From Gammaproteobacteria bacterium (lineage in GTDB: Bacteria; Pseudomonadota; Gammaproteobacteria; Nevskiales; Nevskiaceae), in NCBI GenBank assembly GCA_031396825.1, contig JANNLM010000026.1, positions 1 through 45,857 of the forward strand: a stretch of DNA of 45,857 nucleotides, read 5' to 3'. The notes beneath the pieces were generated by a model, which had not been told where the DNA came from, did no database searches, and saw nothing but the letters and a program-made list of their open reading frames with translations. Shown here in pieces: positions 226 through 38,800 of the stretch. Numbering within the stretch: position 1 is the first letter of the stretch; every line of letters starts with the position of its first letter. The position numbers and the translations under genes were made by a program.

Positions 226-2535
226 TCAGGGCTTGCTGGCTGCCGAAAACGCCCTCGTCCCACGCAGACGCAGGGCATTCCCCACCACCGAGGCCGAACT
301 CAGGCTCATGGCCAGGGCCGCGAGCATCGGCGACAGCAGGACGCCGAAGATCGGAAACAGCACGCCTGCCGCGATCGGGACCCCCAGGCCGTTGTAAATC
401 AGCGCGAATCCCAGGTTCTGCTTCATGTTCCGCACCGTGGCCTGCGACAGCTCAACCGCGCGTGCGATGCCGAGCAGATCGCCTTTCACCAGCGTGACGT
501 GCGCGCTGTTCATGGCGACGTCGGTGCCGGTGCCCATGGCGATGCCGACATCCGCGCCGGCCAGCGCGGGCGCGTCATTGATGCCATCCCCCGCCATGGC
601 CACCCTGCGGCCCTGCGCCTTGAAGTCGGCCACGAGCCTGGCCTTCCCCTCGGGCCGGATTTCGCCGTACACCTCGTCGATGCCCAGGCGTCGCGCGACG
701 GCACGTGCCGTCGTCTCGCCATCCCCGGTCGCCATGACCACCCGGATGCCAAGCGCGCGCAGCTTGTCGAGCGCCTCGGGCGTGGACGCCTTGATGGGGT
801 CGGACACCGTCACCAAGCCCGCGAGCTTCGAACCGATGGCGAGGAACATGACGCTGCCACCCTCAGCGCGCAGTTCTTCGGCGACCTTGATCAGGCCAGA
901 CACGTCCGCGCCGATCTCCTTCATCAGCGCGGTGTTGCCCAGATGCAGGCGCTGTCCTGCCACCCCACCGCGTACGCCGATACCGGTCACCGACTCGAAG
1001 TTCTCCACCGGCAGCAGCGCCAGGTTCTGCCGGCGTGCCTCCGCCACGATGGCCTCCGCCAAGGGATGTTCGCTGCCCTGATCCAGGCTGGCTGCGAGTT
1101 GCAGCACCTGTTCGGGGGTGTGGCCGCCGACGGCCTGCACGCTGTGAAAGGCAGGCTTGCCCTGCGTGAGCGTGCCGGTCTTGTCCACGATGAGGGTGTC
1201 GATGCGACGCAGCATCTCGATGGCGGCGGCATCGCGGAACAGAATGCCGGAACTCGCGGCGCGGCCGGTGGCGACCATGATCGACATCGGCGTCGCCAGT
1301 CCCAGTGCACACGGACAGGCAATGATCAGCACCGCTACCGCGTTGATGAAGCCGTAGACCCACGATGGCTCTGGCCCGAAGAAACCCCAGACCAGCAAGG
1401 TCGCGATTGCGATGCCGATCACGCCGAGCACGAACCAGAAACTCACCGCATCGGCCATGCGCTGCATCGGTGCGCGGGACCGCTGGGCCTGCGCCACCAT
1501 GTGGACGATCTGGGACAGCAAGGTGCCGGCGCCCACCTTCTCGGCACGGATCACGAGGCTGCCGTTGCCGTTGAGCGTGGCGCCGATCACCGCATCACCG
1601 GGCTTGCGATGCACCGGCAGCGGCTCGCCGGTGAGCATCGACTCATTGACATGGCTCTCGCCTTCGAGCACGACGCCATCGATCGGTACCTTCTCGCCCG
1701 GCCGCACGCGCAGCCGATCGCCCACCTGTACCTGGTCGAGTGCAACGTCCGCTTCGGTCCCATCTTCGTTCAAGCGCCGAGCCGTCTTGGGTGACAGTCC
1801 CAGCAGGGAGCGAATCGCGGCCGAAGTCTGCGAACGAGCCTTGAGCTCCAGCATCTGTCCGAGCAAGGTCAGCGATACGATGATGGCCGCCGCTTCGAAG
1901 TACACGCCGATCCGGCCGTGTGCCGCAAAGCTCGCCGGGAAAACGCCGGGCGCGAGGGTGGCCACCACGCTGTAGACATAGGCTGCGGCCACACCCAACC
2001 CGATGAGCGTAAACATGTTCGGGCTGCGGTTTCCGATCGACTGCACGCCGCGTTCGAGGAAGGGCCAGCCTGCCCACAGCACGACCGGCGTCGCCAGCAC
2101 CAGCTCCACCCAGGACTGCGCCGCCATGCTCATGAGCCCGAGCCGGTGGCCCACCATCGCCAGCATCAGCACGATCACCGACAGCGGCAGGGTCCACCAG
2201 AAACGGCGCGTGAAGTCACGCAGCTCAGGGCTTTCGTCATCACCCTCCAGGCTCGGCATCTCCGGTTCCAGCGCCATGCCGCATTTGGGGCAAGTGCCGG
2301 GACGGTCCTGACGGATTTCGGGGTGCATCGGGCAGGTGTAGACCGTTCCCGCGGGCACCGCTGCCAACGCCGCCGCGGCCTTGGGGACCAGGTATTTCGC
2401 CGGATCGGCCGCGAACTTCGTCTGGCAGCCCTGGCTACAGAAGTAGTAGGTGTGCCCCGCGTGGCGATGGGATCGAGCGGTCTTCGGGTCGACCGTCATT
2501 CCGCACACCAGGTCCTTCTGGCTGCCACTGCTCAT
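226..2535 (-). CDS. Cu(I)-exporting P1B-1-type ATPase with a YHS/TRASH-type N-terminus
   Basis: Catalytic motifs DKTGTLT, TGEP and GDGINDAP are present. TM6 carries CPC ([11 protein letters not shown]). TM7 carries N-x6-YN-x4-P ([14 protein letters not shown]). TM8 carries M-x2-SS-x5-N ([11 protein letters not shown]). The N-terminus has VCGM...[12 protein letters not shown] (YHS/TRASH) and YTCPMHPE...CPKCGM. I set the start at ATG 2535 (MSSGSQ), which makes an ATGA overlap with the stop of the upstream ORF. Confidence 0.9.
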
Positions 2536-3656
2536 GACGAGGACCCCTGAGCCGCGCCCAGGGCACCGATGAGACAGCACGCCGCGCCGACCTGAAGAGG
2601 AGCAAAGCCGCTGCCCGGCGTGCGGATGCCGACGACCTGCCCGTGAAAGACGCGCGCCGCGGCGCCGATGACCGAGCCTCTATCGGCAAAGAAGCGAACG
2701 TCGTACTTCCATTGCCGGCCATCGCGGTCGATGACCGGGTGGGGCGCGTAACGCTGGGCCAGATAGTCGTCCGCCGGCAACTCCTCCAACTTGCGACGAC
2801 TGATGCTCTTGCCCACGTACACACCGCGGCTGGAGTATCCGTCGGCAGGCTTGAACACCCATTGGTTTCGCTCGGTGTACCACTCGGGCGCGGAGCGCAC
2901 GCTCATTGGCAAGGTCTCGGCGACGCGGAACGATTGTCCGGTCGTTGCGTCCCGCGCCAGTTCGGCGTGTTTCGACCATTCGATGAAGCGCCGCTTGTCG
3001 GCGATGGCGCGATACGCCTGCGGCGACGGCGCCAGGACGGTGGTTCCCGCCGACACCGCTTGTCGCACCGCCGCGTGTTCGGGTGCGCTCAACTGGAAGT
3101 CGGTGCTGCGCCAGTAGACGCGATCAACCGGTTCGCCTGCGTGACGCAGGCGGCCGTCGCTGAAACCGAGTTCCGCGGCATCGACCACGCGAACGTCTCG
3201 CGCAAACGGTCGCAGCAACCCGGCCAGCGCGTTCATTTCGGCCAGCAAGGGTTGCGCGCCGAGTTGATCGTCCACGATCGCCACCAGGCCGGTCGCCTGC
3301 GCGTCCGGCCCCAGCAGATCGCGGCGGAACAGCGCGAGCAGTCGCTCCTCCAGCATGCCCTGCTCCCAGGCCGCGCAGCAGTCGTTGCCATGCCGGGCAG
3401 CCTGTATCGCCGTGAGTACGCCGCCTGCATTGGTATTGACCTCGATCAGGACAGGACCCTCGGGCGCGGGATGGACGTCGTAACTGAGCAACAGCGGCCT
3501 GGAGTCGGCCAGGGGGTCAGCCGCGAGGATGCGCGCCCACAGCGTTGCGATGCCTCGCGCGATGAGCTTCATCGCCGCCGCCGAGACGGGAATGGCCTGC
3601 TCGAGGATGGGCAGGCCGAAGGGGCTGGACGTCGCCGGGCTCGGGGCCGAGACCAC
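2532..3656 (-). CDS. Circularly permuted ATP-grasp amidoligase (glutathionylspermidine-synthase-like fold)
   Basis: The ATP-grasp nucleotide-site motifs occur in permuted order. The E-x-N type motif ([12 protein letters not shown]) lies N-terminal to the Lys/Gly-rich loop ([17 protein letters not shown]), LAQRYAP and KYDVRFFA. The start is uncertain. GTG 3656 overlaps the upstream stop (TAGTG); the alternative ATG 3572 gives MKLIARG. The ORF-track start at 3902 would overlap the upstream gene. Confidence 0.6.
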
Positions 3657-24731: not shown

Positions 24732-27128
24732 TCAGCCAGCGCCCGGCCAGCGCCAGTTGCGGATCTCCGGCAGGTCCTGGCCGAACTTGTTGATGTGCAG
24801 CTTGTGCTCGACGAGCCTGGCTTCGAGCTGCCGGCGCAATGCAGCGCCCGGCGCGCCGGTCTGCGGCAGGCGGTCGATGGTGTCCATCACCAGGTGAAAG
24901 CGGTCGAGGTCGTTCAGCACCGTCATGTCAAACGCGGTGGTGACCGTGCCCTCCTCCTTGTAACCGCGCACATGAATGTTGTGGTGATTGGTGCGGCGGT
25001 ACGTCAGGCGATGGATCAGCCACGGATAGGCGTGAAACGCGAAGATCACCGGCTTGTCGCGCGTGAACAGCGCATCGAAGGCGTGGTCGGAGAGACCGTG
25101 CGGATGCTCGGTCGGCGACTGCAGGCGCATCAGGTCGACGACGTTGACCACGCGAATCTTCAGCGCCGGCAGACGCGCACGCAGGATCGAAACCGCAGCG
25201 AGCGTCTCCAGCGTCGGCACGTCGCCGCAGCAGGTCATGACCACGTCGGGCTCGCCGCCTGAATCGTTGCTGGCCCAATCCCAGACGCCGATGCCCGCGG
25301 CGCAGTGCGCGTCCGCGGCGTCCATCGCCAGCCACTGCGGCGCCGGATGCTTGCCGGCGACGATCACGTTGACGTAGTGCCGGCTGCGCAGGCAGTGGTC
25401 CATCACCGACAGCAGGCAGTTCGCATCGGGCGGCAGGTAGACACGCACGATCGCCGCCTTCTTGTTGACGACGTGATCGAGGAAGCCGGGATCCTGGTGG
25501 GTGAAGCCGTTGTGATCCTGGCGCCAGACATGCGACGCCAGCAGGTAATTCAGCGAAGCGATCTTGCGCCGCCACGGCAGCTGCGAGGTGACCTTGAGCC
25601 ACTTCGCGTGCTGGTTGAACATCGAATCGACGATGTGGATGAAGGCCTCGTAGCAATTGAAGATGCCGTGGCGCCCGGTGAGCAGGTAGCCCTCGAGCCA
25701 GCCTTCGCACTGGTGCTCGCTGAGCATTTCCATCACCCGCCCGGTCGGTGCGAGCCATTCGTCGGTCGGCAGCGTCGCCGCCTGCCACTGGCGCCGCGTC
25801 GTTTCGAACAGCGCTTCCAGGCCGTTCGACGCCGTCTCGTCGGGACCGAAGACGCGGAAGTTGCGCTGCGCTTCGTTGAGCCGGGCCACGTCACGGACGA
25901 AGCGTCCGCAGACGTGCGTGTCGCCGATGCCGGTAACGCCGGGTGCGGGCACCTCCACGGCGTAGTCGCGGAACGCCGGCATGGCAAGGTCGCGCAGCAG
26001 CAACCCGCCGTTGGCATGCGGATTCGCGCCCATGCGTCGCTTGCCTGCAGGCGCGAGTTCGGCCAGCGCGGGGATCAAGCGTCCGCGTGGGTCGAACAGT
26101 TCCTGCGGCCGGTAACTGCGCAGCCAGTCCTCCAGCAACTGCAGGTGACCGGGATGCCTGGCCGGATCCGACAGCGGCACCTGGTGCGAGCGGAACGTGC
26201 CCTCGACCTGCTTGCCGTCGACGACCTGCGGGCCGGTCCAGCCCTTCGGTGAACTCAGCACGATCATGGGCCAGCGCGGCCGGCCGACCTTGCCGTGCAC
26301 GCGCGCATCCCGCTGATGCGTCTTGATCTGCGCGACGGCGGCGTCGAGCGCCGCGGCCATCGCCTGATGCATCAGCGCGGGCTCGTGCCCTTCGACGAAG
26401 GTCGGCGTCCAGCCATAACCCCGCAGCAGTTGCTCGAGCTCTTCGTGCGTGATGCGCGCGAGGATGGCGGGACTCGCGATCTTGTAGCCGTTGAGATGCA
26501 GGATCGGCAGCACCGCGCCGTCGGTGGCCGCATCGAGGAACTTGTTCGAATGCCAGGCCGTCGCCAGCGGCCCGGTCTCCGCCTCGCCGTCGCCGATCAC
26601 GCAGGCCACGATGAGATCGGGATTGTCGAACACGGCGCCGAAGGCATGGCTCAGCGAATAGCCCAGCTCCCCGCCCTCGTGGATCGACCCGGGACACTCG
26701 GGCGAAGCGTGACTGGGAATCCCGCCTGGAAACGAGAACTGCAGGAACAGCTTCTGCAATCCGGCTTCATCCTGGCTGATGTGCGGATAGACCTCGCTGT
26801 ACGTGCCCTCGAGGTAGGTATTGGCGACGACGGCGGGGCCGCCGTGCCCGGGCCCCGAGACGTAGATCATGTCGAGGTCGTATTGGCGGATGATCCGGTT
26901 CAGGTGAACGTAGATGAAGTTTTGTCCCGGCGTCGTGCCCCAGTGGCCGAGCAGCATCGGCTTGACGTCGGCGAGCGTGAGGGGGCGCTTGAGCAGCGGG
27001 TTGTCGTAGAGATAGATCTGGCCGGCCGACAGATAATTCGCAGCCCGCCAGTAGGCATTCATCCTCGCAAGGAGGTCGGACGAGAGCGGTTGGTTCACAG
27101 TTTGTTCCTGGTCAGCAGACGGATGCAC
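24732..27128 (-). CDS. xfp: Xylulose-5-phosphate/fructose-6-phosphate phosphoketolase
   Basis: 798 aa. [40 protein letters not shown] and [13 protein letters not shown] (ThDP site) are present. Confidence 0.95.
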
Positions 27129-27130
27129 AT

Positions 27131-28336
27131 TCAGGCGCTCGGCTGAAGGCGCAGAGTCGCGCGCGCGATCATCGCCTCTTCATAAGTGCGGATCATCCGC
27201 ACCGTGACCGTACTTGCATCGGCGGAAAGGACCGCTTCGTTCTCCGTGTTGCGGCGATCGTCCAGGGCCACGCCGAGGAATCCAAGGCGCTCGCAGATGC
27301 GCTGACGGATCACCGGCGCGTTCTCGCCAACGCCGCCGGAGAAAACGAGTGTGTCGAGGCCGGCGAGGGCCGCGGCAAACGCGCCTATCGATTTGCAGAC
27401 CTGATAGCAGTAGAGGGCGATGGCCTCCGCCGCGCGAACATCGACTGCTTCGCGCGAGAGCAGATCGCGCAGGTCCGAGCTGGTCTCCGATATGCCCAGC
27501 AATCCCGATTCGTGATTCACCATGGCATGGAACGCCTCGGGGCTCATGTTCTCGCTATGCGCGAGATACCACGCAAGGCCGGGATCGAGGTCTCCGGAGC
27601 GCGTGCTCATGGGGACTCCGCCAGCCGGCGTGAATGACATCGTCGTGTCCACGCTCTGGTTGTCACGGACTGCGGCGAGGCTCGAGCCATTTCCCAGATG
27701 GGCAAGGATGACGCGGCCGCGCGATGCGTCGGGGCCTGCAACGCGCTCGAGCTCTTCCATGAGAAACGCATAGGAAAGGCCATGAAAGCCGAAGCGGCGG
27801 ATGCCTTTCTCATGGAGGCGCCGTGGGATCGGCAGAAGCTGCGCGACGCGCGGCAAGTCGCGATGAAAGGTCGTGTCGAAGCACGCCACCTGCGGGACAT
27901 CCGGCAAGCGTTGGCGAAAGCGTTCGATGAGGCCGATCGCCACCGGCAGGTGCTCGGCGCTGTAATTCTTCAACCCGCGAAGCGCTTGCAGGAGCTCATC
28001 GTCGATTCGCGCGGGTGCGCTGTGTCGCGGCCCGCCGTGCACTACACGGTGGCCCACTGCCTTGACTGCGACAAGGAGCTGGGCCTCTTCGAGCCAGTCG
28101 ATCAGCGCGGCTGCGGCGCCGCTGTGGTCGCCGGCATCGATTGCGCGACTCTGCGCGCGAGCACCGGCCGGGGCGTCGACCGCGAGCGTTGTGCCGGGAA
28201 GACCGATGCGTTCGATCTTTCCGCGGCGGCGTCGCAGCAGCGGTTCGGTCACATCGTATAACGCGAACCTGATGCTCGATGAGCCGGCATTGATCGCCAG
28301 CACGCATGCCGCATCGCCAGGCGCGTTGCGGCTCAT
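27131..28336 (-). CDS. ackA: Acetate kinase
   Basis: [34 protein letters not shown] and [10 protein letters not shown] are present. ATG 28336 forms an ATGA overlap with the upstream stop. The ackA stop lies 2 nt before the xfp start. Confidence 0.88.
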
Positions 28337-29655
28337 GCCGGCGGGGCCCCGCTGGTGAGCCACCCTCCCGAGAAACCCGCTCGCCGCAAGCCGTTGACGA
28401 TGCATGGGCTGTTTCTCATCAATCGCCATAACAACCCGCTGCGATAGTTTTCGATCATCAAAACGATCGGCCCCTGGTTGAGCCCGTAGTGCCACGGTGA
28501 GACCCACCAGCCATAGGGATTGCCGGGCTTGCCCGGGTGGGATGGATTGAAAGACGCCTTGAAGCCGTAAGAGTTGAACTGGGTCAACTTGGCCTGATGA
28601 AGGCAGTGGTGGAGCGCAGGCAGTACGATTTCGGGTGCGAATGGCAGCGACGCCACCAACGCCCACGGAGCAAGGGTGCCATCGTCGGGTCCGTACGGCA
28701 CGCCGCGCCCCACGTAATCGAACAACTGCCGCTCGACGCCGTTTACTTCGAGCGTACCGGGGCCGGGGCCTTCGCTCGAGGTGATGCCAAAGCAATGGGG
28801 GCCGTAGTCCTTGAATCTGAGTGGGTTGTCGATTGCATACTGCTGCTGCACATACGTCGCCCGCCGGCTATTCTCGAAGTAGTCGATGCCTTTCTCACGC
28901 ATGAACGCGTCCTGAATTCCGCGGAAGTCGATCCAGACGTGCGAGAGCTGATGGGTAAATAACGGCCCGGCGTAGAGATAGTCCTGTCCGTAGCAGTGCT
29001 CCCACTTGTAAGTCGAAGCCCACGCCGCGTAGCTCTCCTCGGGCAACGGATGCGTCGGCGATCCCAGCCCCAGCGCATACAGCAGCAGGGCCTCGTCGTA
29101 GCCTTCCCAACGGTAGTTGAGGAAGCCGCTTTCCGGCATCCAGCCGTGCGTCACCGTTGCACCCTGGTTCTGTGCCCATTGCCAGTCGGCGCGGCGATAG
29201 AGCGCGTCGCTAAGGGTTCGGATTTCACTCTCGTCGGCTGTGTCGGCGTCGAAATAAATCCCCGCCGTCAGGGCGCCGGCGAGCAAAAACGCGCTGTCCA
29301 CTGTCGACAGCTCGCATTGCCAGGCGCGACGGCCGGTCTGCATGTCGAGAAAATGATAGTAAAACCCCTTGTAACCGGTCGCGTCGGGTTCGGGGCCTTG
29401 GGTGCTGTTCCAGAAAAAGCGCAGCGTCGCCAGCGTTCGTTCCACCGCTGCGGCCCGCGACATGAATCCGCGTTCGACGCTTACCGGGTAACAGGCTAAC
29501 GCCAGGCCGGTAGCGGCAATGCTGGAAGGCCAATCCGCCGCGGTTTTGTCGATCACCAGCCCGTTGGCGGGATTCGTTTCATGCAAGAAGTAATCGAATG
29601 TTTCGCGCTGCAGGTTTTCAAGTTCCGCATCGACGGTCAGTTTCTCGCTGCTCAT
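28333..29655 (-). CDS. Cytoplasmic glucoamylase-like (alpha/alpha)6-barrel protein (family that contains GH144 endo-beta-1,2-glucanases)
   Basis: 440 aa with no signal peptide (MSSEKLTVDAELENLQ). Blocks GFYYHFLD, STVDSAFLLAGAL, WEGYDEALLLYALGLGS and GLNQGPIVLMIENYRSGL resemble the 'putative glucoamylase' family as I recall it. The assignment is from memory. Confidence 0.5.
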   Translation of the reverse strand: MSSEKLTVDAELENLQRETFDYFLHETNPANGLVIDKTAADWPSSIAATGLALACYPVSVERGFMSRAAAVERTLATLRFFWNSTQGPEPDATGYKGFYYHFLDMQTGRRAWQCELSTVDSAFLLAGALTAGIYFDADTADESEIRTLSDALYRRADWQWAQNQGATVTHGWMPESGFLNYRWEGYDEALLLYALGLGSPTHPLPEESYAAWASTYKWEHCYGQDYLYAGPLFTHQLSHVWIDFRGIQDAFMREKGIDYFENSRRATYVQQQYAIDNPLRFKDYGPHCFGITSSEGPGPGTLEVNGVERQLFDYVGRGVPYGPDDGTLAPWALVASLPFAPEIVLPALHHCLHQAKLTQFNSYGFKASFNPSHPGKPGNPYGWWVSPWHYGLNQGPIVLMIENYRSGLLWRLMRNSPCIVNGLRRAGFSGGWLTSGAPPA

Positions 29656-29737
29656 GATGACGTCCGGTTTGCCGGCCCCCTGTGCGAGGCTGCCGCGACG
29701 AGGGACTTCCTGATTGTCACCTCACGCCTCCGCCGAA

Positions 29738-30823
29738 TCAGCCGACCTTCTCGAACTGGGCGCTCTTCTCCGCAATGCTGGCGAGGAGCGCGTCCCAGGA
29801 TCTGCCGAACGCCGCGGCGCCATCCTTTTGGAGCTTCGTTGCCAGCGCGTCGAGGTCGACGCCCGCTTGCGTGAACCGGTCGAGCACGTCCTCGGCGTCG
29901 CCCCCGTCGTGCGGCAGCATCGCGTCGATCTCGCCGTGGTCGGCGAGTGCCAACAGCGTCTTCTCCGGGATCGTGTTGACGCAATGCGGCGCCGCCAGCG
30001 ACTCGACGTAGAGGATGTCCGACACGTTCGGATCCTTGGTGCCGGTGCTCCCCCAGAGCAGCCGTTGCGCGCGCGCGCCGACGTTGAGGAGACGCAGCCA
30101 GCGATCGGACGCGAGCAGATCGCGATACGCCTTGTAGGTGCGTTTCGCCATGGCGATGCCGAGCTGGTTGTCGAGCGCCGCGGGCCCCTTCCCGACGATT
30201 GCCGCGTCCCAGCGGCTCACGAACAATGAGGCCACCGACTCCACATGCGGATTCAGGCCCACCGCCACGCGCCGCTCGATACCCCGGATGTAGGCCTCTG
30301 CTGCCGCCAGGTAGTGCTCGCGGGAAAAGAGCAGTGTCACGTTGATCGGCACCCCCGCGAAGATCGCCTCCTCGATGGCCCGGATGCCCTCGCGCGTGCC
30401 CGGAATCTTGATGAAGAGGTTGGGCCGGGCCGCCTGCGCGTGAAGCGCTTGCGCCGCCGCAACAGTGCCCTTCGTGTCGTAGGCCAGTTTCGGCGAAACC
30501 TCGAGCGACACCCAACCGTCGACGCGGTTTGTCGCCTCGTGGATCGGACGGAAGAGATCCGCGGCGCGAACCAGGTCTTCGATCGCGAGCTCGAAAAAGA
30601 GCGCCTCGCCGGACTTGCCCGCCGCCGTCTTCTCACCGATCGCCGCGTCGTAATCGCGGCTATTCTTGATCGCCTGCTCGAATATCGTCGGGTTGGAGGT
30701 GAGGCCGGTGACGGAGAGCTCGGTGATGTAGCGCTGTAGACCGCCGCCGGCGAGGAGCGCGCGGGTAATATTGTCGAGCCAGAGACTCTGGCCGGCGGCG
30801 TGAAGCTGCTGGGTGGCTTTCAT
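29738..30823 (-). CDS. tal: Transaldolase (long form)
   Basis: GQSLWLDNITR, VTGLTSNPTIFEQAI and PNLFIKIPGT (Schiff-base Lys region) are present. Length 361 aa. Confidence 0.9.
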   Translation of the reverse strand: MKATQQLHAAGQSLWLDNITRALLAGGGLQRYITELSVTGLTSNPTIFEQAIKNSRDYDAAIGEKTAAGKSGEALFFELAIEDLVRAADLFRPIHEATNRVDGWVSLEVSPKLAYDTKGTVAAAQALHAQAARPNLFIKIPGTREGIRAIEEAIFAGVPINVTLLFSREHYLAAAEAYIRGIERRVAVGLNPHVESVASLFVSRWDAAIVGKGPAALDNQLGIAMAKRTYKAYRDLLASDRWLRLLNVGARAQRLLWGSTGTKDPNVSDILYVESLAAPHCVNTIPEKTLLALADHGEIDAMLPHDGGDAEDVLDRFTQAGVDLDALATKLQKDGAAAFGRSWDALLASIAEKSAQFEKVG

Positions 30824-30853
30824 CGTGTGTCCTCCGCCAGCGCCGCTTCGACC

Positions 30854-31237
30854 TTACTCGCGCTTACCTTCCTTGGTGTGATCCATGCCTTCCTTCATTC
30901 CCTTCTCCATCATTTCGTCAGCGTGACCAGGTCCCGGACCGGCGGCCTGCTGCTTGATCGTCATTTGGTCAACGACGTTGGCTACACCGTCGGTTCCGCG
31001 GGCTATTACGACAGCTCGTTCCTTGACGGCAGAGGTATCGACAGTTCCTGACAGGGTGACGACTCTCTTCTGCACACTGACGTTGATCGGAGCGGCCCCG
31101 ACCGATGCGTCCGCGGTGAGGTTCGTTTTGACTTTCGTGCCGATTCCGTCGTCGGTGGGGCCGCAACCCGCAGTAATGAACGCAACCGCTGCCAGTACAC
31201 CGACGAACGCACGATGTTGCTGATTCATGATTTTCAT
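30854..31237 (-). CDS. BON-domain lipoprotein (OsmY-like)
   Basis: Lipobox ITAGC. BON core INVSVQKRVVTLSGTVDTSAVKERAVVIARGTDGVANVVDQM. The tail is HADEMMEKGMKEGMDH. Confidence 0.7.
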   Translation of the reverse strand: MKIMNQQHRAFVGVLAAVAFITAGCGPTDDGIGTKVKTNLTADASVGAAPINVSVQKRVVTLSGTVDTSAVKERAVVIARGTDGVANVVDQMTIKQQAAGPGPGHADEMMEKGMKEGMDHTKEGKRE

Positions 31238-31256
31238 CTCCTTAGGCGGGACTCGA

Positions 31257-31730
31257 CTACATGTGGCCCATGGGCATCGCCGCCTGATCGCTCTGCATCA
31301 TCTGTTCCATCATCATTTGCATCATGTCCATGCGCGTTTCCATCTCGTCCTGACGCGTTTTCATGCCGTCACCCGGCATAGCACCGCTTTTCTTGTCTCC
31401 CATAGCCATGCCGCCGCCCTTCATCGCCGGGCCGCCCATGCTGCGCATCGCCTTCATGTTTTCCTGCATGAGCTGCATGTGTTCCTGCATCAGCTTCTGG
31501 CGCTCCTTCGGGTCGGTGGTCGTGGCGATCTTGTCCATCTGCTGCTGCATTTTTTTCATGTTGTCCTGCATCTTGCCCACTGGCTTGTCCATATCCATCT
31601 TCATTGCCGGCTTGGCGGGCGCGGACTTTGCCGGCGCTGGCTTTTCCATGTCCATGTTCATCTGCGCTGATGCGAGCGGCGCCGACAAGGCACAGGAAAC
31701 GATTGCGGACATCAGCACTGAGGTTTTCAT
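31257..31730 (-). CDS. Secreted, extremely Met-rich helical protein (35 Met in 157 aa)
   Basis: Signal peptide MKTSVLMSAIVSCALSAPLASA. Repeats of the type MNMDMEKP / MKMDMDKP, MQEHMQLMQENMKAM and RMDMMQMMMEQMMQ. I counted the Met residues by hand. Confidence 0.7.
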   Translation of the reverse strand: MKTSVLMSAIVSCALSAPLASAQMNMDMEKPAPAKSAPAKPAMKMDMDKPVGKMQDNMKKMQQQMDKIATTTDPKERQKLMQEHMQLMQENMKAMRSMGGPAMKGGGMAMGDKKSGAMPGDGMKTRQDEMETRMDMMQMMMEQMMQSDQAAMPMGHM

Positions 31731-31941
31731 GGCGGTCTTTACCTTTGGGGTTGGATAACTTCATGGTTCCATTGGGCGCGACGACGGATACCCTCAGTCG
31801 GCGCAACAACGCCCCGCCCCAGTGCAAGTGAGCGGGTTTAATCAGAACCAGTCTGGGCGTCGATTCCGTTCACCGTCCGTGCGCCACCGAACTTAGCGTC
31901 GTCGGAGCCCGGCATCGCTTCGTCGGATCGGCCATTGACGA

Positions 31942-34437
31942 TCAAGCGCGTGCCTTATCCGGTTGCGGGGCTGCCGCTGCGGTTGGCGTGCCCACTGGCT
32001 TCGGCGTGGCTGTCGCGTCGGACGTACCGGGCGCCGCGTTCTTGCCAGGCTGACGGATGCCTGCCAGTTTGGTGCGCTTCAGCATCAGCGCATTGATCGC
32101 CACCACGAGCGTGCTGCCGGACATTGACAGCGCCGCGACTTCGGGACTCAGTACGAACGGAAAAAAGACGCCCGCCGCGAGCGGGAAGGCGATCGCGTTA
32201 TAGCCCACCGCCCACCAGAGATTCTGGTGCATTTTTCGCAACGTTGCGCGCGAGAGTTCGATCGCGGCAACAATGTCGTACGGGTCACTCTTCATGAGCA
32301 CAACGTCGGCGCTTTCCATCGCGACGTCGGTGCCGGCGCCAATCGCAAACCCCACGTTGGCCTGCGTGAGCGCAGGCGCATCGTTGACGCCATCGCCGAC
32401 CATTCCGACTTTCTTCCCCGCAGCCTGCAGCTCCTTCACCTTGTCCGCCTTCTGACCCGGCAACACGTCGGCGAGCACGGTGTCGATACCGAGATCTGCC
32501 GCGATGCGCTTGGCGGTGGCCGCGTTGTCGCCGGTCAACATGACCACTTCGATACTCCGTTCGCGAAGTTTTGCCACCGCCGCCTTGGAGGTTGGCCTGA
32601 TCGCATCGGCGATCGCGATGAGGCCAATGACGTGCGCCGCCGGAGAGACATGGATTGCCGTGCGCCCGTCACTCTGCATGCGAGTGGCTTCGGCCTCGAG
32701 GGGGCCGAGCGCGAGTTGTTGCGTATCCATCAGCAATCGGTTGCCGAGGAACACCGTTCCGCCTGCGGTCTCGGCGCGCGCGCCCATGCCGTCGAGACTT
32801 TCGAACGCGGTCGGTGCCGCGACGGTGAGATGCGACGCCCGGCGCAGAATTGCCTGCGCGAGCGGATGGTCGGAGCCCTGCTCGACGGCGGCCGCGGCGG
32901 TCAGCAACACGTCTTCGGTGATGCCGTCTGCCGTCACGATCTCGACGACCTCGGGCTGGCCGATGGTGAGCGTGCCGGTCTTGTCGAAGACGATGACGTT
33001 CAGCTTGGTAGCGTCTTCGAGCGCCGATGCGTTCTTGAAGAGAATGCCGCGCGTCGCGCCGAGGCCCGTTCCCACCATGACTGCCATGGGCGTGGCGAGC
33101 CCGAGTGCGTCCGGGCACGCGATCACGAAGACCGTGATAGTCAGCGTCACGGCGAATAGCAGTGGCTGGCCGATCCACCAGAACCAGACGGCGAAGGTCG
33201 CAAGACCGACCACGATTGCCGCAATGACCAGCCATTGCGCGGCTTTGTCGGCCAGGAGCTGCGCCGGCGCTTTGGAGTTCTGCGCTTCCTGCACGAGCTT
33301 GACGATCTGCGCGAGCGCCGAGTCGGCCCCAACCTTCGTCGCCTTATAGCGAAAGCTGCCGCTCTTGTTGATCGTCGCGCCGATCACCGTGGAGCCCGGG
33401 CCCTTCTGCACCGGCATCGACTCGCCGGTAAGCATGGACTCGTCGACCAGCGATTCCCCGTTCTCCACGGTGCCGTCGACCGGAATCTTGTTGCCCGGCC
33501 GGATCACGACAATCTCGCCCGCCAATACCTCTGCAGTCGGCACTTCGACCTCGGCACCATTGCGGATGACGTTGGCCTTGGTCGGCGTGAGGTCCATCAG
33601 CGCCTTGATGGCGGATGATGCACCCGCGCGCGCGCGCATCTCCAGCCAGTGGCCGAGCAGGATAAAAACCAGCAGGACGGCGGCGGCTTCGAAGAACTGC
33701 CCTTCGCCCTCGAAGAAGAAAGTGGTGCCGACACTGAACAGATAGCCAGTGCCCACGCTCAACACGATCAGCGCCGCCATGCCCAGAGTCCCCTTCCTGA
33801 GCGCGCGCCAGGCTGAGACAAAGAACGGCCAGCTCGGATAAAGAATCGCGGCGCTTGCGAAGAAGAATAACCACAGGTTGAGCTCCAGCCCGAACGGTGG
33901 CGCCGGCGGTTCGAACATACCGCCCATCGGTGCGTAGACAAAGATCGGCACGGTGAAGGCCAGGCAGATCCAGAAGCGGTTGCGCATGTCGCGAACCATG
34001 GCCGGCAGATCCTTGCCGCCATGGCCCATCTCATGCGCCATATCCGCCGGCAGAGCGGGCTGCGGTTCCGGCACCGCGTGGCCCTCGTGGCCTTTGTCTG
34101 TGGGTGCGGCCGGCGCGGCGCCTGCGGGCGCTTCCGGGGCAGTTTTCGGCGCAGCGGGTGCGGGGGTTGCAGCTGGCTCGCCCGTCGCGGCGCGGCCTTC
34201 GTGACCGTCGCCCGCCGAAGCGGCGGTTGGCTCAGCGGAGTCATGCGCGCGTTGGCGCACGGCCGACTTGATATCAGCGACCTCGAGTCGGGTTTCGTCG
34301 TAGCGCACTGTGGCGCTTCCCGCAGCGAAATTTACGGTAACGCTTTCGACACCAGACACCTCGCCAATCCGCTCTTCCACTCCGTCCACGCTCAATACCG
34401 ACAGCATGTCGTGCACGTCCATAACGCTTGTTTTCAT
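31942..34437 (-). CDS. P1B-type ATPase with P1B-3 (CopB-type) TM7/TM8 signatures, a CPD TM6 motif and a cysteine-less HMA-like N-terminal domain
   Basis: DKTGTLT, TGES and GDGVNDAP are present. TM6 is [14 protein letters not shown]7 is N-x5-GYN-x4-P ([14 protein letters not shown]). TM8 is P-x6-MSxST-x5-N ([18 protein letters not shown]). The N-terminal ferredoxin-like domain has DMLSVLS where HMA domains have GMTCxxC. AGGAG lies 5 nt upstream of ATG 34437; the track start at 34440 is a GTG. Confidence 0.88.
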
Positions 34438-34465
34438 CACGTCTCCTAAACGCCGTCGTTATTCA
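34194..34465 (-). repeat. Direct repeat copy 1 (5' end of the ATPase gene plus its RBS/leader)
   Basis: Roughly 90% identical by eye over about 270 nt to 35411-35680. The match includes the Shine-Dalgarno region and about 25 nt of upstream leader. Confidence 0.85.
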
Positions 34466-34494
34466 TTTAGGGCATCCGGATTCGTGATGGCATA

Positions 34495-34749
34495 TCACCG
34501 CAGTCTCTTGCTCCAGAAGCCCGATGCGATTCCATGGATTGCGCCGAGCACAAAACCAGCGACGGTGAACAGCGTGAATCCCGTCAGAAAACCGAGGGGG
34601 CTACCGGAGATCAGCCACGGACTCGCCGGCGCCAATGCAGCAATCAGTCCGAAGGGCGGAAACAGAACATCGAAAATGACGCAAAAGACATAGGTCAAAG
34701 CCAGAGTCGTCGCCAGAGAAAACGCAGGTACTTTCCAGGAATGTGTCAT
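34495..34749 (-). CDS. Small membrane protein (84 aa, 2-3 TM), unknown function
   Basis: ATG 34749 opens MTHSWKVPAFSLATTLALTYVFCVIFDVLFPPFGLIAALAP...GFTLFTVAGFVLGAIHGIASGFW. It lies in a locally low-GC patch. Confidence 0.5.
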   Translation of the reverse strand: MTHSWKVPAFSLATTLALTYVFCVIFDVLFPPFGLIAALAPASPWLISGSPLGFLTGFTLFTVAGFVLGAIHGIASGFWSKRLR

Positions 34750-34754
34750 GACAC

Positions 34755-35135
34755 TTACATTTTGTGCTTGACGTAGCGCGCTGTATCGCGCGGACTGTCT
34801 TCCCCAACCATTTCGCACGCTGCCACGGGCGCCGCTGCGCCGGTACGCCACACCCATCCCACAGGGAGAAACCGATCTGTCTGCTTTGCGATTTCTTCCG
34901 TTGGCCGGAAGGACACTTCCAAACCAGATTCCACCTGCATGATTTCATTGGGAAGCGGCTGGAATTCACCGGTTCTCTCGTCATGTATGTGAGGCATGAA
35001 GATGCCGAGTTTGTACTCGGATAGTCTGCGAAGCATCTCCTGGACTTCTGGGAGATGGATTGCCTCCTGAGCAACACTTAACGCTTGTGGCAAACAGCCA
35101 AACGCGCTTCCTTGTGAAACATTCGCTATCGTCAT
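34755..35135 (-). CDS. Hypothetical soluble protein (126 aa), no family recognised
   Basis: Clean ORF 6 nt upstream of the next gene. Non-repetitive composition, unlike the Arg/Ala-rich spurious ORFs. It lies in the low-GC patch. Confidence 0.4.
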   Translation of the reverse strand: MTIANVSQGSAFGCLPQALSVAQEAIHLPEVQEMLRRLSEYKLGIFMPHIHDERTGEFQPLPNEIMQVESGLEVSFRPTEEIAKQTDRFLPVGWVWRTGAAAPVAACEMVGEDSPRDTARYVKHKM

Positions 35136-35246
35136 GATGCTTTTCCTGCTGAGGTGGTTGACCCTTCGAAGTGGCCAGATCGCAACAGGTGCATTCGTTT
35201 TGGAGGCCGCACCAACCTCGTTATGGGAACGGTGCGAGACATCGCC

Positions 35247-35654
35247 CTAACCTTTGACCGGCGCCGCTTTGGGTTTCGATTCGTCGCCTGCGGGAGCGGC
35301 GGGCGTGGGTGCGGCAGCGGCGGGTTTCGGCGCAGCGGGCGCGGGTGCGGCGGCCGGCGCGGCCGGGGAAGGTTTCGGTGTTGTTGACGACGCCGCGCCC
35401 GGCGCTGTGTGGCCTTCGTGGCGGTCGCCATCCGAAGCTGCGGCGGGCGCGGCAGACTCATACCCGCTTCGGCGCACGGCAGACTTGATGTCGGCAATCG
35501 CGAGTCGGGATTCGTCGTAGCGCACCGTGGCGCTTCCCGCAGCGTAATTCACGGTAACGCTTTCGACACCCGGCACCTTGCCAATCCGCTGTTCCACTCC
35601 GTCCACGCTCAATACCGACAGCATGTCGTGCACTTCCATAACGCTCGTTTTCAT
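35247..35654 (-). CDS. Stand-alone cysteine-less HMA-like domain protein with a Pro/Ala-rich tail (paralogue of the ATPase N-terminus)
   Basis: [60 protein letters not shown] matches the ATPase N-terminus [65 protein letters not shown] lies 5 nt upstream of ATG 35654. Confidence 0.7.
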   Translation of the reverse strand: MKTSVMEVHDMLSVLSVDGVEQRIGKVPGVESVTVNYAAGSATVRYDESRLAIADIKSAVRRSGYESAAPAAASDGDRHEGHTAPGAASSTTPKPSPAAPAAAPAPAAPKPAAAAPTPAAPAGDESKPKAAPVKG

Positions 35655-35680
35655 CGCATCTCCTTAACCGTCGTCATATT
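35411..35680 (-). repeat. Direct repeat copy 2 (stand-alone HMA-like gene 5' part plus RBS/leader)
   Basis: See 34194-34465; the offset between copies is about 1217 bp. Confidence 0.85.
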
Positions 35681-35877
35681 GCGATGCGGAAAGTGCGTGA
35701 CGTTGCCGGTGCCGCCGCCGCATGTCATGCCAATTACCTTGGATTGCCGGATTGCCCGCCGTGCGGAATGCTCGCGAGCAACTCTCCATGTGGAGGGTGA
35801 GTGTGGGCATCACCGAGGAGAGCGTCTGTGCGCTGACGTACGTGGCCGCGTTCGTGCGGCAGGTCGAGCCCATCGAT

Positions 35878-38800
35878 TCACATCCTCAGTTCGACCGCGT
35901 GCGGCCGGCCATCGTTGACCAGCTGGACGACGCGGCCCGGTTGCGGGACGCCATCGACGGTCAAGCGACCGCCATCGGCGTCATGCGCCTTGCGCACCGT
36001 GATCGTGTAGACCGTCTCCTGGAATCGATAGTCGAGTTCGAATGAAGTCCACTCCGTCGGCATGCAGGGATTGAGGTGCAGGCGATCCGCTTCGCGCCGA
36101 AGTCCGAGCAGCGATTCCAGGATCAGTCGATACATCCAGCCGGCCGAGCCGGTGTACCAGGTCCAGCCGGCGCGACCGGTGTGCGGCGGCATGGCGTAGA
36201 CGTCAGCCGCGACCACGTAGGGCTCGGAGCGATACGTCGCGACGCCTTGTGGCGTGCGCGTGTGGTTGACCGGGTTGATCAGCGCGAGCAGTTCCCAGGC
36301 GCGGCGGCTATCGCCAAGACGGGCGAAGGCCATCGCGGCCCACACCGCTGCGTGCGTGTATTGCCCGCCGTTTTCGCGCACGCCGGGAACGTAGCCGCGG
36401 ATGTAGCCGGGATTCAGGTTCGACGTGTCGAACGGCGGGTCGAGCAGCTGCACCAGCCCGGCGTCGCGGCGAACCAGCCGTCGGTCCAGCGCGTCCATCG
36501 CCGTGCGCGAGCGCTCGCCGTCGCCCGCGCCGGACAGCACCGACCAGCTCTGCGCGATGGAGTCGATCTGGCATTCGGCGTTGGACGCCGTGCCCAGCAG
36601 CGTGCCGTCGTCGAACCAGGCGCGGCGATACCAGCCGCCGTCCCAGGCGTGCAGCTCCAGATTGTTGCGCAGGGCGGCCGCTTCTTTTTCGCAGCGCTCG
36701 ACGAACTCGGGATCGCCGTGGATCGCGGCAAGCCTGGCGAATGACGACAGGACTTCATGGAGAAAGAATCCGAGCCAGACGCTCTCGCCGCGGCCGTGAA
36801 TGCCGACCAGATTCATGCCGTCGTTCCAGTCGCCCGATCCCATCAGCGGCAGGCCGTGCTCGCCGTAGCGCAGGCCGTGCAGGATCGCGCGCACGCAGTG
36901 CTGGTACAGGCTCGCCGTTGCAGCGGAACGACCGGGCTGGTCGTAGTACGACTCCTCCTGGCCGCCCAGCGCGCGGCCCTCGAGGAAGTGCACGTTCTCG
37001 TCGAGCACGCCCGTGTCGCCGGTGGTAAGCACGTAGCGGCACGCCGCCAGCGGCAGCCACAGATAGTCGTCCGAGCAGCGTGTGCGCACGCCGCGGCCGG
37101 ACGGCGGATGCCACCAGTGCTGGACGTCGCCTTCCGAGTACTGGCGTCCGGCGCAGAGCAGCATCTGCTCGCGCAGCAGCCGCGGCTCGGCGTGCACCAG
37201 CGCCATCGCGTCCTGCAGCTGGTCGCGGAACCCGAATGCGCCACCGGACTGGTTGAAGCCGCTGCGCGCCCACATCCGGCAGGCCAGCGCCTGGTAAACC
37301 AGCCAGCCGTTGGCCAGCACGTCGAGCGCCGGATCGGGCGTGTGCACCTGGACGGCGCCGAGCGTGTGCTTCCAGAAGCGCCGGACTTTTTCGAGCGAGC
37401 TGCGTGCCGAGCCCGACTTGCGCAGCCGCTGCGCCAGCTCGCGCGCATGGCCGAGAGTGCGCCCAACGCCGAGACGGAAGATGATCTCGCGCTCCTGGCC
37501 GTCCGCCAGGTCAAACGGAACCTGGATTGCCGCGCAGGGATCCAGCCCCGCGCCGACGCGGCTGGAGAGCCGCGACCGTGTCATCGCATCGGGCGTTGCC
37601 GGCGCGCTGTTGCGGCCGAGGAACTCGGCGCGGTCGCCGGTCAGCGTGCGCGACAAATCGTCGACGTCGAAGAACGCGACGCGTTCTGCGAACTCGGTGT
37701 TGTAGACGTTGCGCGCGAACAGCGCGCCACTCGCCGCATCGATCTCGGTCACCACGTGCATCGCGCACTTCGGGCGCAGGTCGCCGAGCACCCATTCGAC
37801 GTAGCCGGTCGCCGAAAGCCGCCGCGCGCGGCCCGAGCCGTTGCGCACTTTCAGCACGGAGAATTTCACCGACTCCTCGAGGTCGACATACACCCACAGC
37901 TCCGAGCGGATGCCGCCCGTCGTGTGCTCGAACACGCTGTAGCCGAAGCCGTGACGCGTGACGTAGGGCATCGCGCCGCGGCTCGGCAGCGGCGTCGGCG
38001 ACCAGAAGTGCCCGCTCTCCTCGTCGCGCAGGTACATGGCCTCGCCACCCGCGGCGCCGACCGGGTCGTCGCTCCATGGCGTCAGCCGGAATTCGTGGGC
38101 GTTCTCGCTCCAGGTGTAGGCCTGGCCGCTCTCGGAGATCACCGTGCCGAAATGCGGATTGGCGAGCACGTTGACCCAGGGCACCGGCGTCATCCGCGAT
38201 TGCGCGGTGGCGATGACATACTCGCTGCCGTCGCGGGTGAATCCGCCAAAGTCGTTGCCGAGCACCAGGTCCGGCTGCGCCGCATCGGGCGACGCCGCCG
38301 GTTCGGCGCGATGCTCGCGCGTCGTCGCCAGCCGCGTGACGCGCTTGTCCGCAATGGCACGCTGGCTGATCTGCTCGGCCAGGGTGCCACCGCCGTCGGT
38401 GATGATGGCGCGCGCGACCGCCTGCAGCAGGATGCGGTCCTCGCCGGAGATCTGCTCGCCGGAGCGCACGAAGACGCCGCCGGGGCGATCGATGACATGC
38501 GCCTCGGGGCCGCCCGCGATCAGGCCCATGATCTGGTCCTGCAATCGCTGGCGATAGCTGGCGTGATCCTCGTTCCAGATCACCAGGTCGACGGCGAGGC
38601 CCTTGGAGCGCCAGTACGCGTGGCACCGGATCATCTGGCGGACGAGATCGATGTTGGCGATGTCGGCGATCTTCAGCAGCACGATCGGCAGGTCGCCGGA
38701 GATTGCGTAACCCCAGAGGCCGGATTGGCCGCGCCGGTTCTGCGTCAGCACGCCAGCGTCCGCGCGCAGCGCGGCGTGGGCGTAGAGGACGGCGCCGGCG

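Follow-up and report, generated by a model that had tools for sequence, protein, structure and literature searches.

The selectivity rules for P1B-type ATPases rest on a few residues in transmembrane helices (TM) 6 to 8, whose polymorphisms have been tabulated in a sequence survey (PMC5552934). That survey, by Cubillas et al. (2017), set apart as group VIc three Cu-ATPases of Rhizobiales, found in Xanthobacter autotrophicus, in Nitrobacter hamburgensis and in Bradyrhizobium sp., in which TM6 carries the motif CPD. It is the sole paper found in the literature searched that mentions CPD in a P-type ATPase, and it covers neither a substrate, nor a Cys-less HMA cassette, nor an island, nor a spread beyond Rhizobiales. 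The other described systems that come close are the CopB/TcrB pumps, which have CPH in TM6 and are encoded on plasmids of Staphylococcus, Enterococcus and Listeria, and the CopA pumps, which have CPC and include those of Archaeoglobus fulgidus (3j09), Legionella pneumophila (3rfu) and Escherichia coli. Here we analyse a gene for a CPD-type P1B ATPase on a contig of 45,857 nucleotides (JANNLM010000026.1 of assembly GCA_031396825.1; hereafter the window) from a gammaproteobacterium of the family Nevskiaceae. The gene is intact and belongs to a large, mobile and strictly conserved carboxylate branch of the P1B pumps, which makes it a test case for the selectivity rules. We lean towards the view that its product exports copper, as an accessory pump of the CopB lineage whose metal site is Cys/Asp/Met. 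New here are the cross-phylum mobile island in which the gene lies, its conserved operon partners and a portable Cys-less HMA cassette.

The CPD motif is genuine and strictly conserved

The open reading frame (ORF; 31942..34440, minus strand) specifies 831 or 832 residues; a GTG at 34440 is a possible start, and homologues begin at the ATG at 34437 (Table 1; residue positions follow the numbering of protein P0001). The catalytic motifs DKTGT, TGES, HP and GDGVNDAP are all intact, and these motifs (the last in the general form GDGxNDxP), together with a CPx-type TM6 motif ahead of DKTGT, identify the protein as a P1B ATPase. It has two cysteines, Cys159 and Cys442. Asp444, the residue that makes the motif CPD, is encoded by GAC (33111-33109, minus strand). 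The best relatives of solved structure are the CopA pumps of A. fulgidus (3j09, E 3e-157) and L. pneumophila (3rfu), with matches to CopA structures ranging from E 3e-157 to 7e-151, and the nucleotide-binding N-domain of A. fulgidus CopB (3skx) was also matched.

The CPD in TM6 had been pointed out in an initial annotation of the locus, and it is a real feature of the family. TM6 is identical in all of the 120 best homologues (74-92% identity) from a large protein collection, most of them from soil and sediment metagenomes, and the homologues inspected among these 120 share the Cys-less start of the HMA domain. Codon 444 shows no alternative letter in contigs of four sediment metagenome runs, plasmid copies from cultured strains likewise read CPD, and Asp444 does not vary anywhere in the CPD radiation, even at 48-51% identity. 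Conservation is very high along the entire protein. We conclude that the pump gene is intact and that the CPD change is real.

The depth of the sediment runs is uneven over this gene. Summed contig depth rises from about 10 to thousands over the DNA words that encode DKTGT and TM6 (32960-33000 and 33108-33140), so many co-resident organisms evidently share these exact words.

Phylogeny supports a place in the CopB lineage

We compared the pump with family models and with the residue signatures of the known subfamilies. With 608.9 bits it passed TIGR01525, the heavy-metal model of NCBIfam (cut-off 346), and with 597.2 bits it passed TIGR01511, the model of the copper subfamily (cut-off 397). 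The ZntA models it failed by far (NF033775, 328 bits against a cut-off of 1240). Zn/Cd pumps combine CPC with a Lys in TM7 and an Asp in TM8, and Co pumps carry SPC and HEGST. The TM7 of the pump is without Lys and its TM8 without Asp, which separates it from P1B-2 (ZntA/CadA), and SPC and HEGST are absent. Nor does it conform to P1B-1 (CopA), which has CPC in TM6, CxxC in the HMA domain and MxxSS in TM8, where the pump has CPD, MLSVLSV and MSGST. The P1B-3 signature of TM7 and TM8, which goes back to Arguello in 2003, is by contrast found in both helices, as the initial annotation had recognized, and the CPH consensus shows the same pattern. Two other traits of P1B-3 (CopB) differ: TM6 has CPD instead of CPH, and the N terminus is not a His-rich tail without an HMA fold but has an HMA domain (PF00403, E 3e-10) and three short H-E-x(1-2)-H motifs only.

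Phylogenetic placement supports the assignment to P1B-3. The best 150 matches in 1.84 billion cluster representatives comprised 131 CPC, 8 CPH and 7 CPD pumps, the rest being fragments. In a FastTree phylogeny of 146 sequences, the CPD and CPH pumps formed a single clade (support 100) apart from all CPC pumps. A second phylogeny, computed from 49 sequences with IQ-TREE in a quick run that included no bootstraps, had E. coli ZntA as its root and recovered the same clade, with a value of 100 in the SH-like approximate likelihood ratio test (SH-aLRT), inside the copper-type radiation. In this second tree the CPH group is monophyletic and includes a Staphylococcus plasmid pump, and two deep CPD lineages split off before it, an order that is weakly supported. 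The Staphylococcus CPH pump and the N. hamburgensis CPD pump took the places expected of them. The query groups with the pumps of N. hamburgensis X14 plasmid 2 and Polaromonas naphthalenivorans pPNAP02, with that of Rhodococcus jostii RHA1 pRHL3 more distant.

Comparison of alignment columns agreed with the trees. Leu404, Ala408, Gly412 and Pro720 are common to CPD and CPH pumps and not to CPC pumps. Position 444 is the single site residue that splits the three groups, being Asp, His or Cys and invariant within each, which bears out the earlier statement that Asp takes the place of His. The median number of cysteines per pump is one for CPH, two for CPD and six for CPC. The likeness to CopB/TcrB extends to GYN in TM7, MSxST in TM8, the low number of cysteines and a His-containing segment ahead of TM-A; the differences are the Asp in place of the TM6 His and a Cys-less HMA fold in place of the long His-rich tail. 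Glu251, Asp333, Pro496 and Met716 of the pump agree with CopA instead of CopB. CopA shares the overall architecture, the entry residues and the catalytic motifs, and differs in having CPC, in the CxxC of its HMA domain and in falling in a separate clade. We conclude that sequence and phylogeny together support membership of the CopB (former P1B-3) lineage.

Within that lineage the gene is a member of the CPD subtype described in 2017. As in group VIc, TM6 has CPD, the N terminus has few histidines and TM7 has YN-x4-P, and the pump groups with the plasmid pumps of N. hamburgensis and X. autotrophicus (63-64.5% identity); TM8 reads MSGSS in the survey (PMC5552934) and MSGST in the window. The N. 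hamburgensis X14 plasmid 2 pump, 63% identical and in the same strongly supported clade, also has a phosphoketolase gene nearby. CPD homologues had thus been described before, but our literature searches found no functional test and no characterised example.

The pump gene has spread with a mosaic island

When genomes were scanned, one for each prokaryotic species, at least 577 proved to encode a relative of the pump. The best 80 of these genome relatives are 66-92% identical and occur in Alpha-, Beta- and Gammaproteobacteria, Acidobacteriota, Gemmatimonadota, Myxococcota, Bacteroidota, Bdellovibrio, Omnitrophota and others, and copies with an identity of at least 60% are present in 27 plasmid records. 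Of 40 relatives of the source genome, drawn from its genus, family and order, just one carries the pump. This spread over many phyla and plasmids, with near-absence among relatives, implies repeated horizontal transfer. We conclude from its distribution that the pump gene is an accessory one and was acquired horizontally.

We surveyed the context of 83 related loci by tblastn and counted gene classes in the 63 loci of at least 12 kb. At least one energy-reserve or stress gene (phosphoketolase, acetate kinase, glycoamylase, PPK2, universal stress protein, cyclopropane-fatty-acid synthase or LemA/TPM) was present in 51 of these, and at least one copper-type accessory (CopZ-like protein, multicopper oxidase, CusA, DUF2933 or ICMT-like methyltransferase) in 47; both classes occurred together in 40. 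The DUF2933 and ICMT-like genes are known companions in copper-induced merR-copA clusters (PMC8478169). The same gene mixture is found on plasmids of cultured strains, namely pPNAP02, Pseudomonas fluorescens pG20 and N. hamburgensis plasmid 2. We found no paper in our literature searches that describes the island (phosphoketolase, PPK2, universal stress protein and P-type ATPase) as a unit. The recurrent island (24732-35654 in the window; also L002, L017, L088, L092 and other related loci) holds, in addition, transaldolase, a glycogen-debranching-like enzyme and DUF6629.

The initial annotation had assigned the gene to a stress/phosphoketolase gene string rather than to a cop operon. The first part stands: the pump is co-directional with a string of BON, transaldolase (tal), glycoamylase-family, acetate kinase (ackA) and phosphoketolase (xfp) genes, and in other phyla, too, the pump has Xfp, AckA and glycoamylase as neighbours (the name glycoamylase-family rests on PF10091 matches of homologues in related loci). 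The exclusion of a copper setting does not, as the window also contains a copA/copB-type multicopper-oxidase cluster and a second cluster of oxidase and outer-membrane-factor genes, so that the region is a mosaic of both.

OmpR-family response regulators, CopR/CusR-like in appearance, lie in several pump flanks (L073, L079 and L045). Small MerR-family regulators, which look mercury-type by their resemblance to MerR of Tn501, occur in several flanks as well. The island is often found in the company of other metal-resistance modules.

A described locus with comparable gene content, and likeness in gene content only, is lxa, which has genes for stress proteins, a metal-dependent RNase, sugar kinases and a cation-transporting P-type ATPase (BCAM0318). 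Its counterparts in the window are a beta-CASP RNase, phosphoketolase, acetate kinase and the BON protein.

A portable HMA domain lacks cysteines

The HMA domain of the pump is free of Cys, having MLSVLSV where the consensus has MTCxxC, and the GDGHEGR and KGHEGHA repeats reported with it lie in the linker that follows. A third motif, MAHEMGHGG, absent from the earlier list, is near-invariant in the family and stands just before the first membrane helix.

The Cys-less module, recognizable by two conserved segments of 16 and 10 residues, occurs in three forms: at the pump N terminus, as a stand-alone protein and fused to P2-type ATPases. The P2-type fusions, which carry (I/V)PEGL and DKTGT, were found in three related loci of different organisms (L001, L008 and L023), each adjoining a CPD pump, and two of the three retain a GHEGH tail. 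Relatives of the L001 P2 pump are annotated as Ca2+ pumps in their source records. None of its 119 closest relatives has an HMA domain, from which we take the fusions to be sporadic. Judged from these arrangements, the cassette moves between pumps of different ion classes. Since it is shared with Ca-type P2 pumps, its missing cysteines tell little about the membrane site or the substrate of the pump that carries it. Most probably the cassette, with its short His/Glu motifs, serves in regulation or docking and does not determine selectivity.

Copper is the favoured substrate

In the mechanism that we favour, copper would be exported from the cytoplasm through the usual P-type cycle. The metal would arrive at a membrane entry formed, by homology, by Met148, Glu251 and Asp398, and would then occupy an intramembrane site of Cys442 and Asp444 (TM6), Tyr747 and Asn748 (TM7) and Met773, Ser774 and Ser776 (TM8), from which it would leave for the periplasm once the DKTGT aspartate has been phosphorylated. 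Asp444 would act as an anionic oxygen ligand in place of the CopB histidine or the second CopA cysteine, giving a single-thiol site. We take Met148 as the probable entry methionine by analogy with published work on L. pneumophila CopA (LpCopA).

Copper is favoured because several lines of evidence agree. The pump is placed inside the copper clade and passes the copper subfamily model; apart from position 444, the site and entry residues just listed match those of copper pumps; copper accessories flank many of its relatives; and the window has two multicopper-oxidase clusters and, directly downstream of the pump, a secreted Met-rich protein. The sister CPD subclade provides a further line, represented by the R. 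jostii RHA1 pRHL3 pump, which is 50% identical and likewise has a Cys-less HMA domain. This pump adjoins a CsoR/RicR-type regulator (best match RicR, E 1.6e-40, below the model cut-off), which on reading its sequence appears to carry a C-H-C pattern, and the locus also encodes a CopZ-like protein, a DUF305 protein and a multicopper oxidase.

The initial annotation had argued against classical thiolate-based Cu(I) handling, from CPD and the Cys-less HMA domain. We found no support for this argument, which is at the same time not refuted: the remaining copper-site and entry residues are retained, and CopB pumps, published copper pumps among them, are generally poor in cysteine. The sister CPD pump beside copper genes also speaks against it, and the HMA part of the argument loses its force with the cassette on Ca-type P2 pumps.

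Several observations weigh against a copper exporter. Carboxylates bind Cu(I) poorly, and Asp444 stands at the position matched in P2 pumps by a cation-binding Glu (PEGL). The N-terminal motifs are of His and Glu, not Cys. In the loci and plasmids examined of the query's subclade, no copper sensor gene adjoins the pump. The genome already has two CPC pumps, which makes a distinct role plausible. The association with energy and stress genes is frequent, and that with copper genes could reflect shared metal-resistance plasmids or islands; the count of CopZ-like genes, moreover, may contain cross-matches to Cys-less HMA genes. Literature searches, finally, returned no assay of any CPD pump.

Some of these observations fit a site of shifted selectivity better. 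With the same Cys/Asp/Met site, the exported ion might be Cu(II) or one of the harder divalent ions (Zn, Cd, Pb, Co, Ni, Fe(II) or Mn), perhaps in exchange for protons moved via Asp444, and the His/Glu motifs of the HMA cassette would serve to deliver the metal or to sense it. We regard this as possible but on balance unlikely. The invariance of Asp444 across the CPD radiation would be expected, and Cys and Asp, both negatively charged, would neutralise a divalent ion; the conserved HEGH and HEMGH motifs, the HMA domain without thiols and its fusion to Ca-type P2 pumps, the two further CPC pumps and the lack of an adjacent copper sensor point the same way. Against it, Cys442 and Met773, both soft ligands, are kept without exception, the Zn/Cd and Co signatures are absent and the ZntA models fail, the pump lies among copper pumps in the tree, and a CsoR/RicR-like regulator stands beside the sister CPD pump. 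Work on Sphaerobacter CopB, moreover, reportedly found Cu(I) where the His-rich N termini of CopB pumps had earlier been read as a sign of Cu(II). In its broader form, the idea is that CPD pumps are a functionally distinct P1B subgroup (specific for another ion or valence, or coupled to protons), controlled in the query's subclade by the portable HMA/HEGH cassette, within a cross-phylum mobile energy-reserve and stress island; we hold this to be tentative in the same degree.

A more doubtful alternative is a low-flux metallation pump, resembling FixI/CopA2, that feeds periplasmic or membrane cuproenzymes (multicopper oxidases and oxidases) during stress or low-oxygen survival and has no part in detoxification. 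The two CPC pumps would leave room for such a role, the window encodes multicopper oxidases and c-type cytochromes, and the gene lies in an energy-reserve and stress island that is not under a copper sensor. There is, however, no consistent cuproenzyme partner (a multicopper oxidase query from related loci matched six of the 83 loci), the gene is outside a cbb3 oxidase (fixNOQP/fixGHIS) context, and the case is one of analogy. We consider it improbable. Practically impossible are an assembly or sequencing artefact, for which the sole ground is the fragmented state (366 contigs) of the metagenome-assembled genome that contains the window and which the 120 homologues, four runs and cultured-strain plasmids rule out, and a decaying pseudogene, which the intact catalytic motifs and whole-protein conservation rule out.

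If the accessory copper exporter that we favour pumps Cu(I), one thiol and a carboxylate would suffice for the site, and we speculate that such a design might resist oxidation. If another ion is pumped, the annotation 'copper ATPase' would be incorrect in thousands of cases among genomes of soil, sediment and plasmids. Direct testing is possible, as cultured carriers exist, among them P. naphthalenivorans CJ2, N. hamburgensis X14 and R. jostii RHA1.

Regulation and expression

The idea of low-oxygen control by FNR/Anr drew no usable support from a search for its box (TTGAT-N4-ATCAA, at most one mismatch). The window has none, which is also a difference from lxa. In 1.4 Mb of related loci there were 78 such sites, against about 14 in shuffled sequence, and just one of them was upstream of a pump. 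A scan of 30800-36000 for sigma-70 promoters found none, and in a set of 21 regions lying upstream of the stand-alone HMA gene the ribosome-binding leader alone was conserved, with no shared operator. In soil, close relatives of the pump seem to be transcribed: many contigs 88-99% alike over conserved parts of the gene came from three soil runs that bear the label RNA-Seq, for which DNA carry-over is possible.

Operon partners, neighbouring genes and other pumps

The pump is the fourth and final gene of an apparent operon, after genes for the stand-alone HMA protein, a 126-aa protein and an 84-aa protein with two transmembrane helices (Table 1). The 126-aa protein was found in 24 of the 83 related loci, mostly immediately upstream of the pump, and matched no Pfam, NCBIfam or PHROGs family; its AlphaFold2 model (pLDDT 60.7) was too poor for a fold search. 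Its MPHxHD, CEM and H-x-M motifs look like metal ligands. DUF5676 genes, the family weakly matched by the 84-aa protein, lie near the pump in other loci. Homologues of the Met-rich protein downstream of the pump occur in about five of the 83 loci, which shows that it is not a fixed partner.

Table 1 Features of the pump gene, its neighbours and related P-type ATPases (positions in the window unless a locus is given; all residues in pump numbering)
Feature	Position	Strand	Remarks
CPD-type P1B ATPase gene	31942..34437	-	E1-E2_ATPase, Hydrolase and HMA domains; 831 aa from ATG 34437, alternative GTG 34440
Cys-free HMA-like domain, residues 7-63	34252..34422	-	MLSVLSV (34387-34407) where consensus has MTCxxC; PF00403 E 3e-10; kept in the inspected ones of the 120 close homologues
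Linker with three His/Glu motifs	34015..34212	-	GDGHEGR (34192-34212, residues 77-83), KGHEGHA (34075-34095, residues 116-122), MAHEMGHGG (34015-34041, residues 134-142)
Pre-TM-A platform segment (12 residues) with Met148	33970..34005	-	Kept in CPD pumps, similar in CPH pumps
TM6 motif (12 residues), residues 440-451	33088..33123	-	Cys442, Pro443, Asp444
DKTGT phosphorylation motif	32971..32985	-	
TM7 motif (14 residues), residues 740-753	32182..32223	-	N-x5-GYN-x4-P
TM8 motif (18 residues), residues 766-783	32092..32145	-	P-x6-MSxST-x5-N (MSGST in window)
Stand-alone Cys-less HMA paralogue, 135 aa	35247..35654	-	First operon gene; HEGH tail motif; 67% identical to pump N terminus
126-aa soluble protein, no known family	34755..35135	-	Invariant MPHxHD, CEM, C-terminal H-x-M (mostly KHKM)
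84-aa two-TM protein directly upstream of pump	34495..34749	-	Weak DUF5676 match only, E 0.063, below cut-off
Secreted Met-rich protein directly downstream of pump	31257..31730	-	From sequence; no Pfam family
Co-directional string: BON, transaldolase, glycoamylase-family, acetate kinase, phosphoketolase	24732..31237	-	
Separate CPC-type P1B pump	226..2580	-	YHS and HMBD N-terminal domains; outside operon
Cys-less HMA fused to N terminus of P2-type ATPase	L001:5798-8896	-	
Cys-less HMA fused to N terminus of P2-type ATPase	L008:6457-9654	+	
Cys-less HMA fused to N terminus of P2-type ATPase	L023:19687-22422	+	

Also on the minus strand, a 2899-aa ORF (35878-44577) ends 220 nucleotides upstream of the HMA-pump operon and by appearance specifies a putative protein of the cyclic-glucan-synthase/glycoside-phosphorylase type; the 83 related loci gave two partial matches to it and none over its full length.

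The CPC pump at the start of the window implies that canonical copper export is also encoded in this genome. A third P1B pump, also CPC, lies on another contig (C107:636-2681), and both CPC pumps carry HMBD-type N termini instead of HMA domains. The genome-search match to the C107 pump flagged one TAG, yet the ORF listing gives an intact frame of 716 aa.

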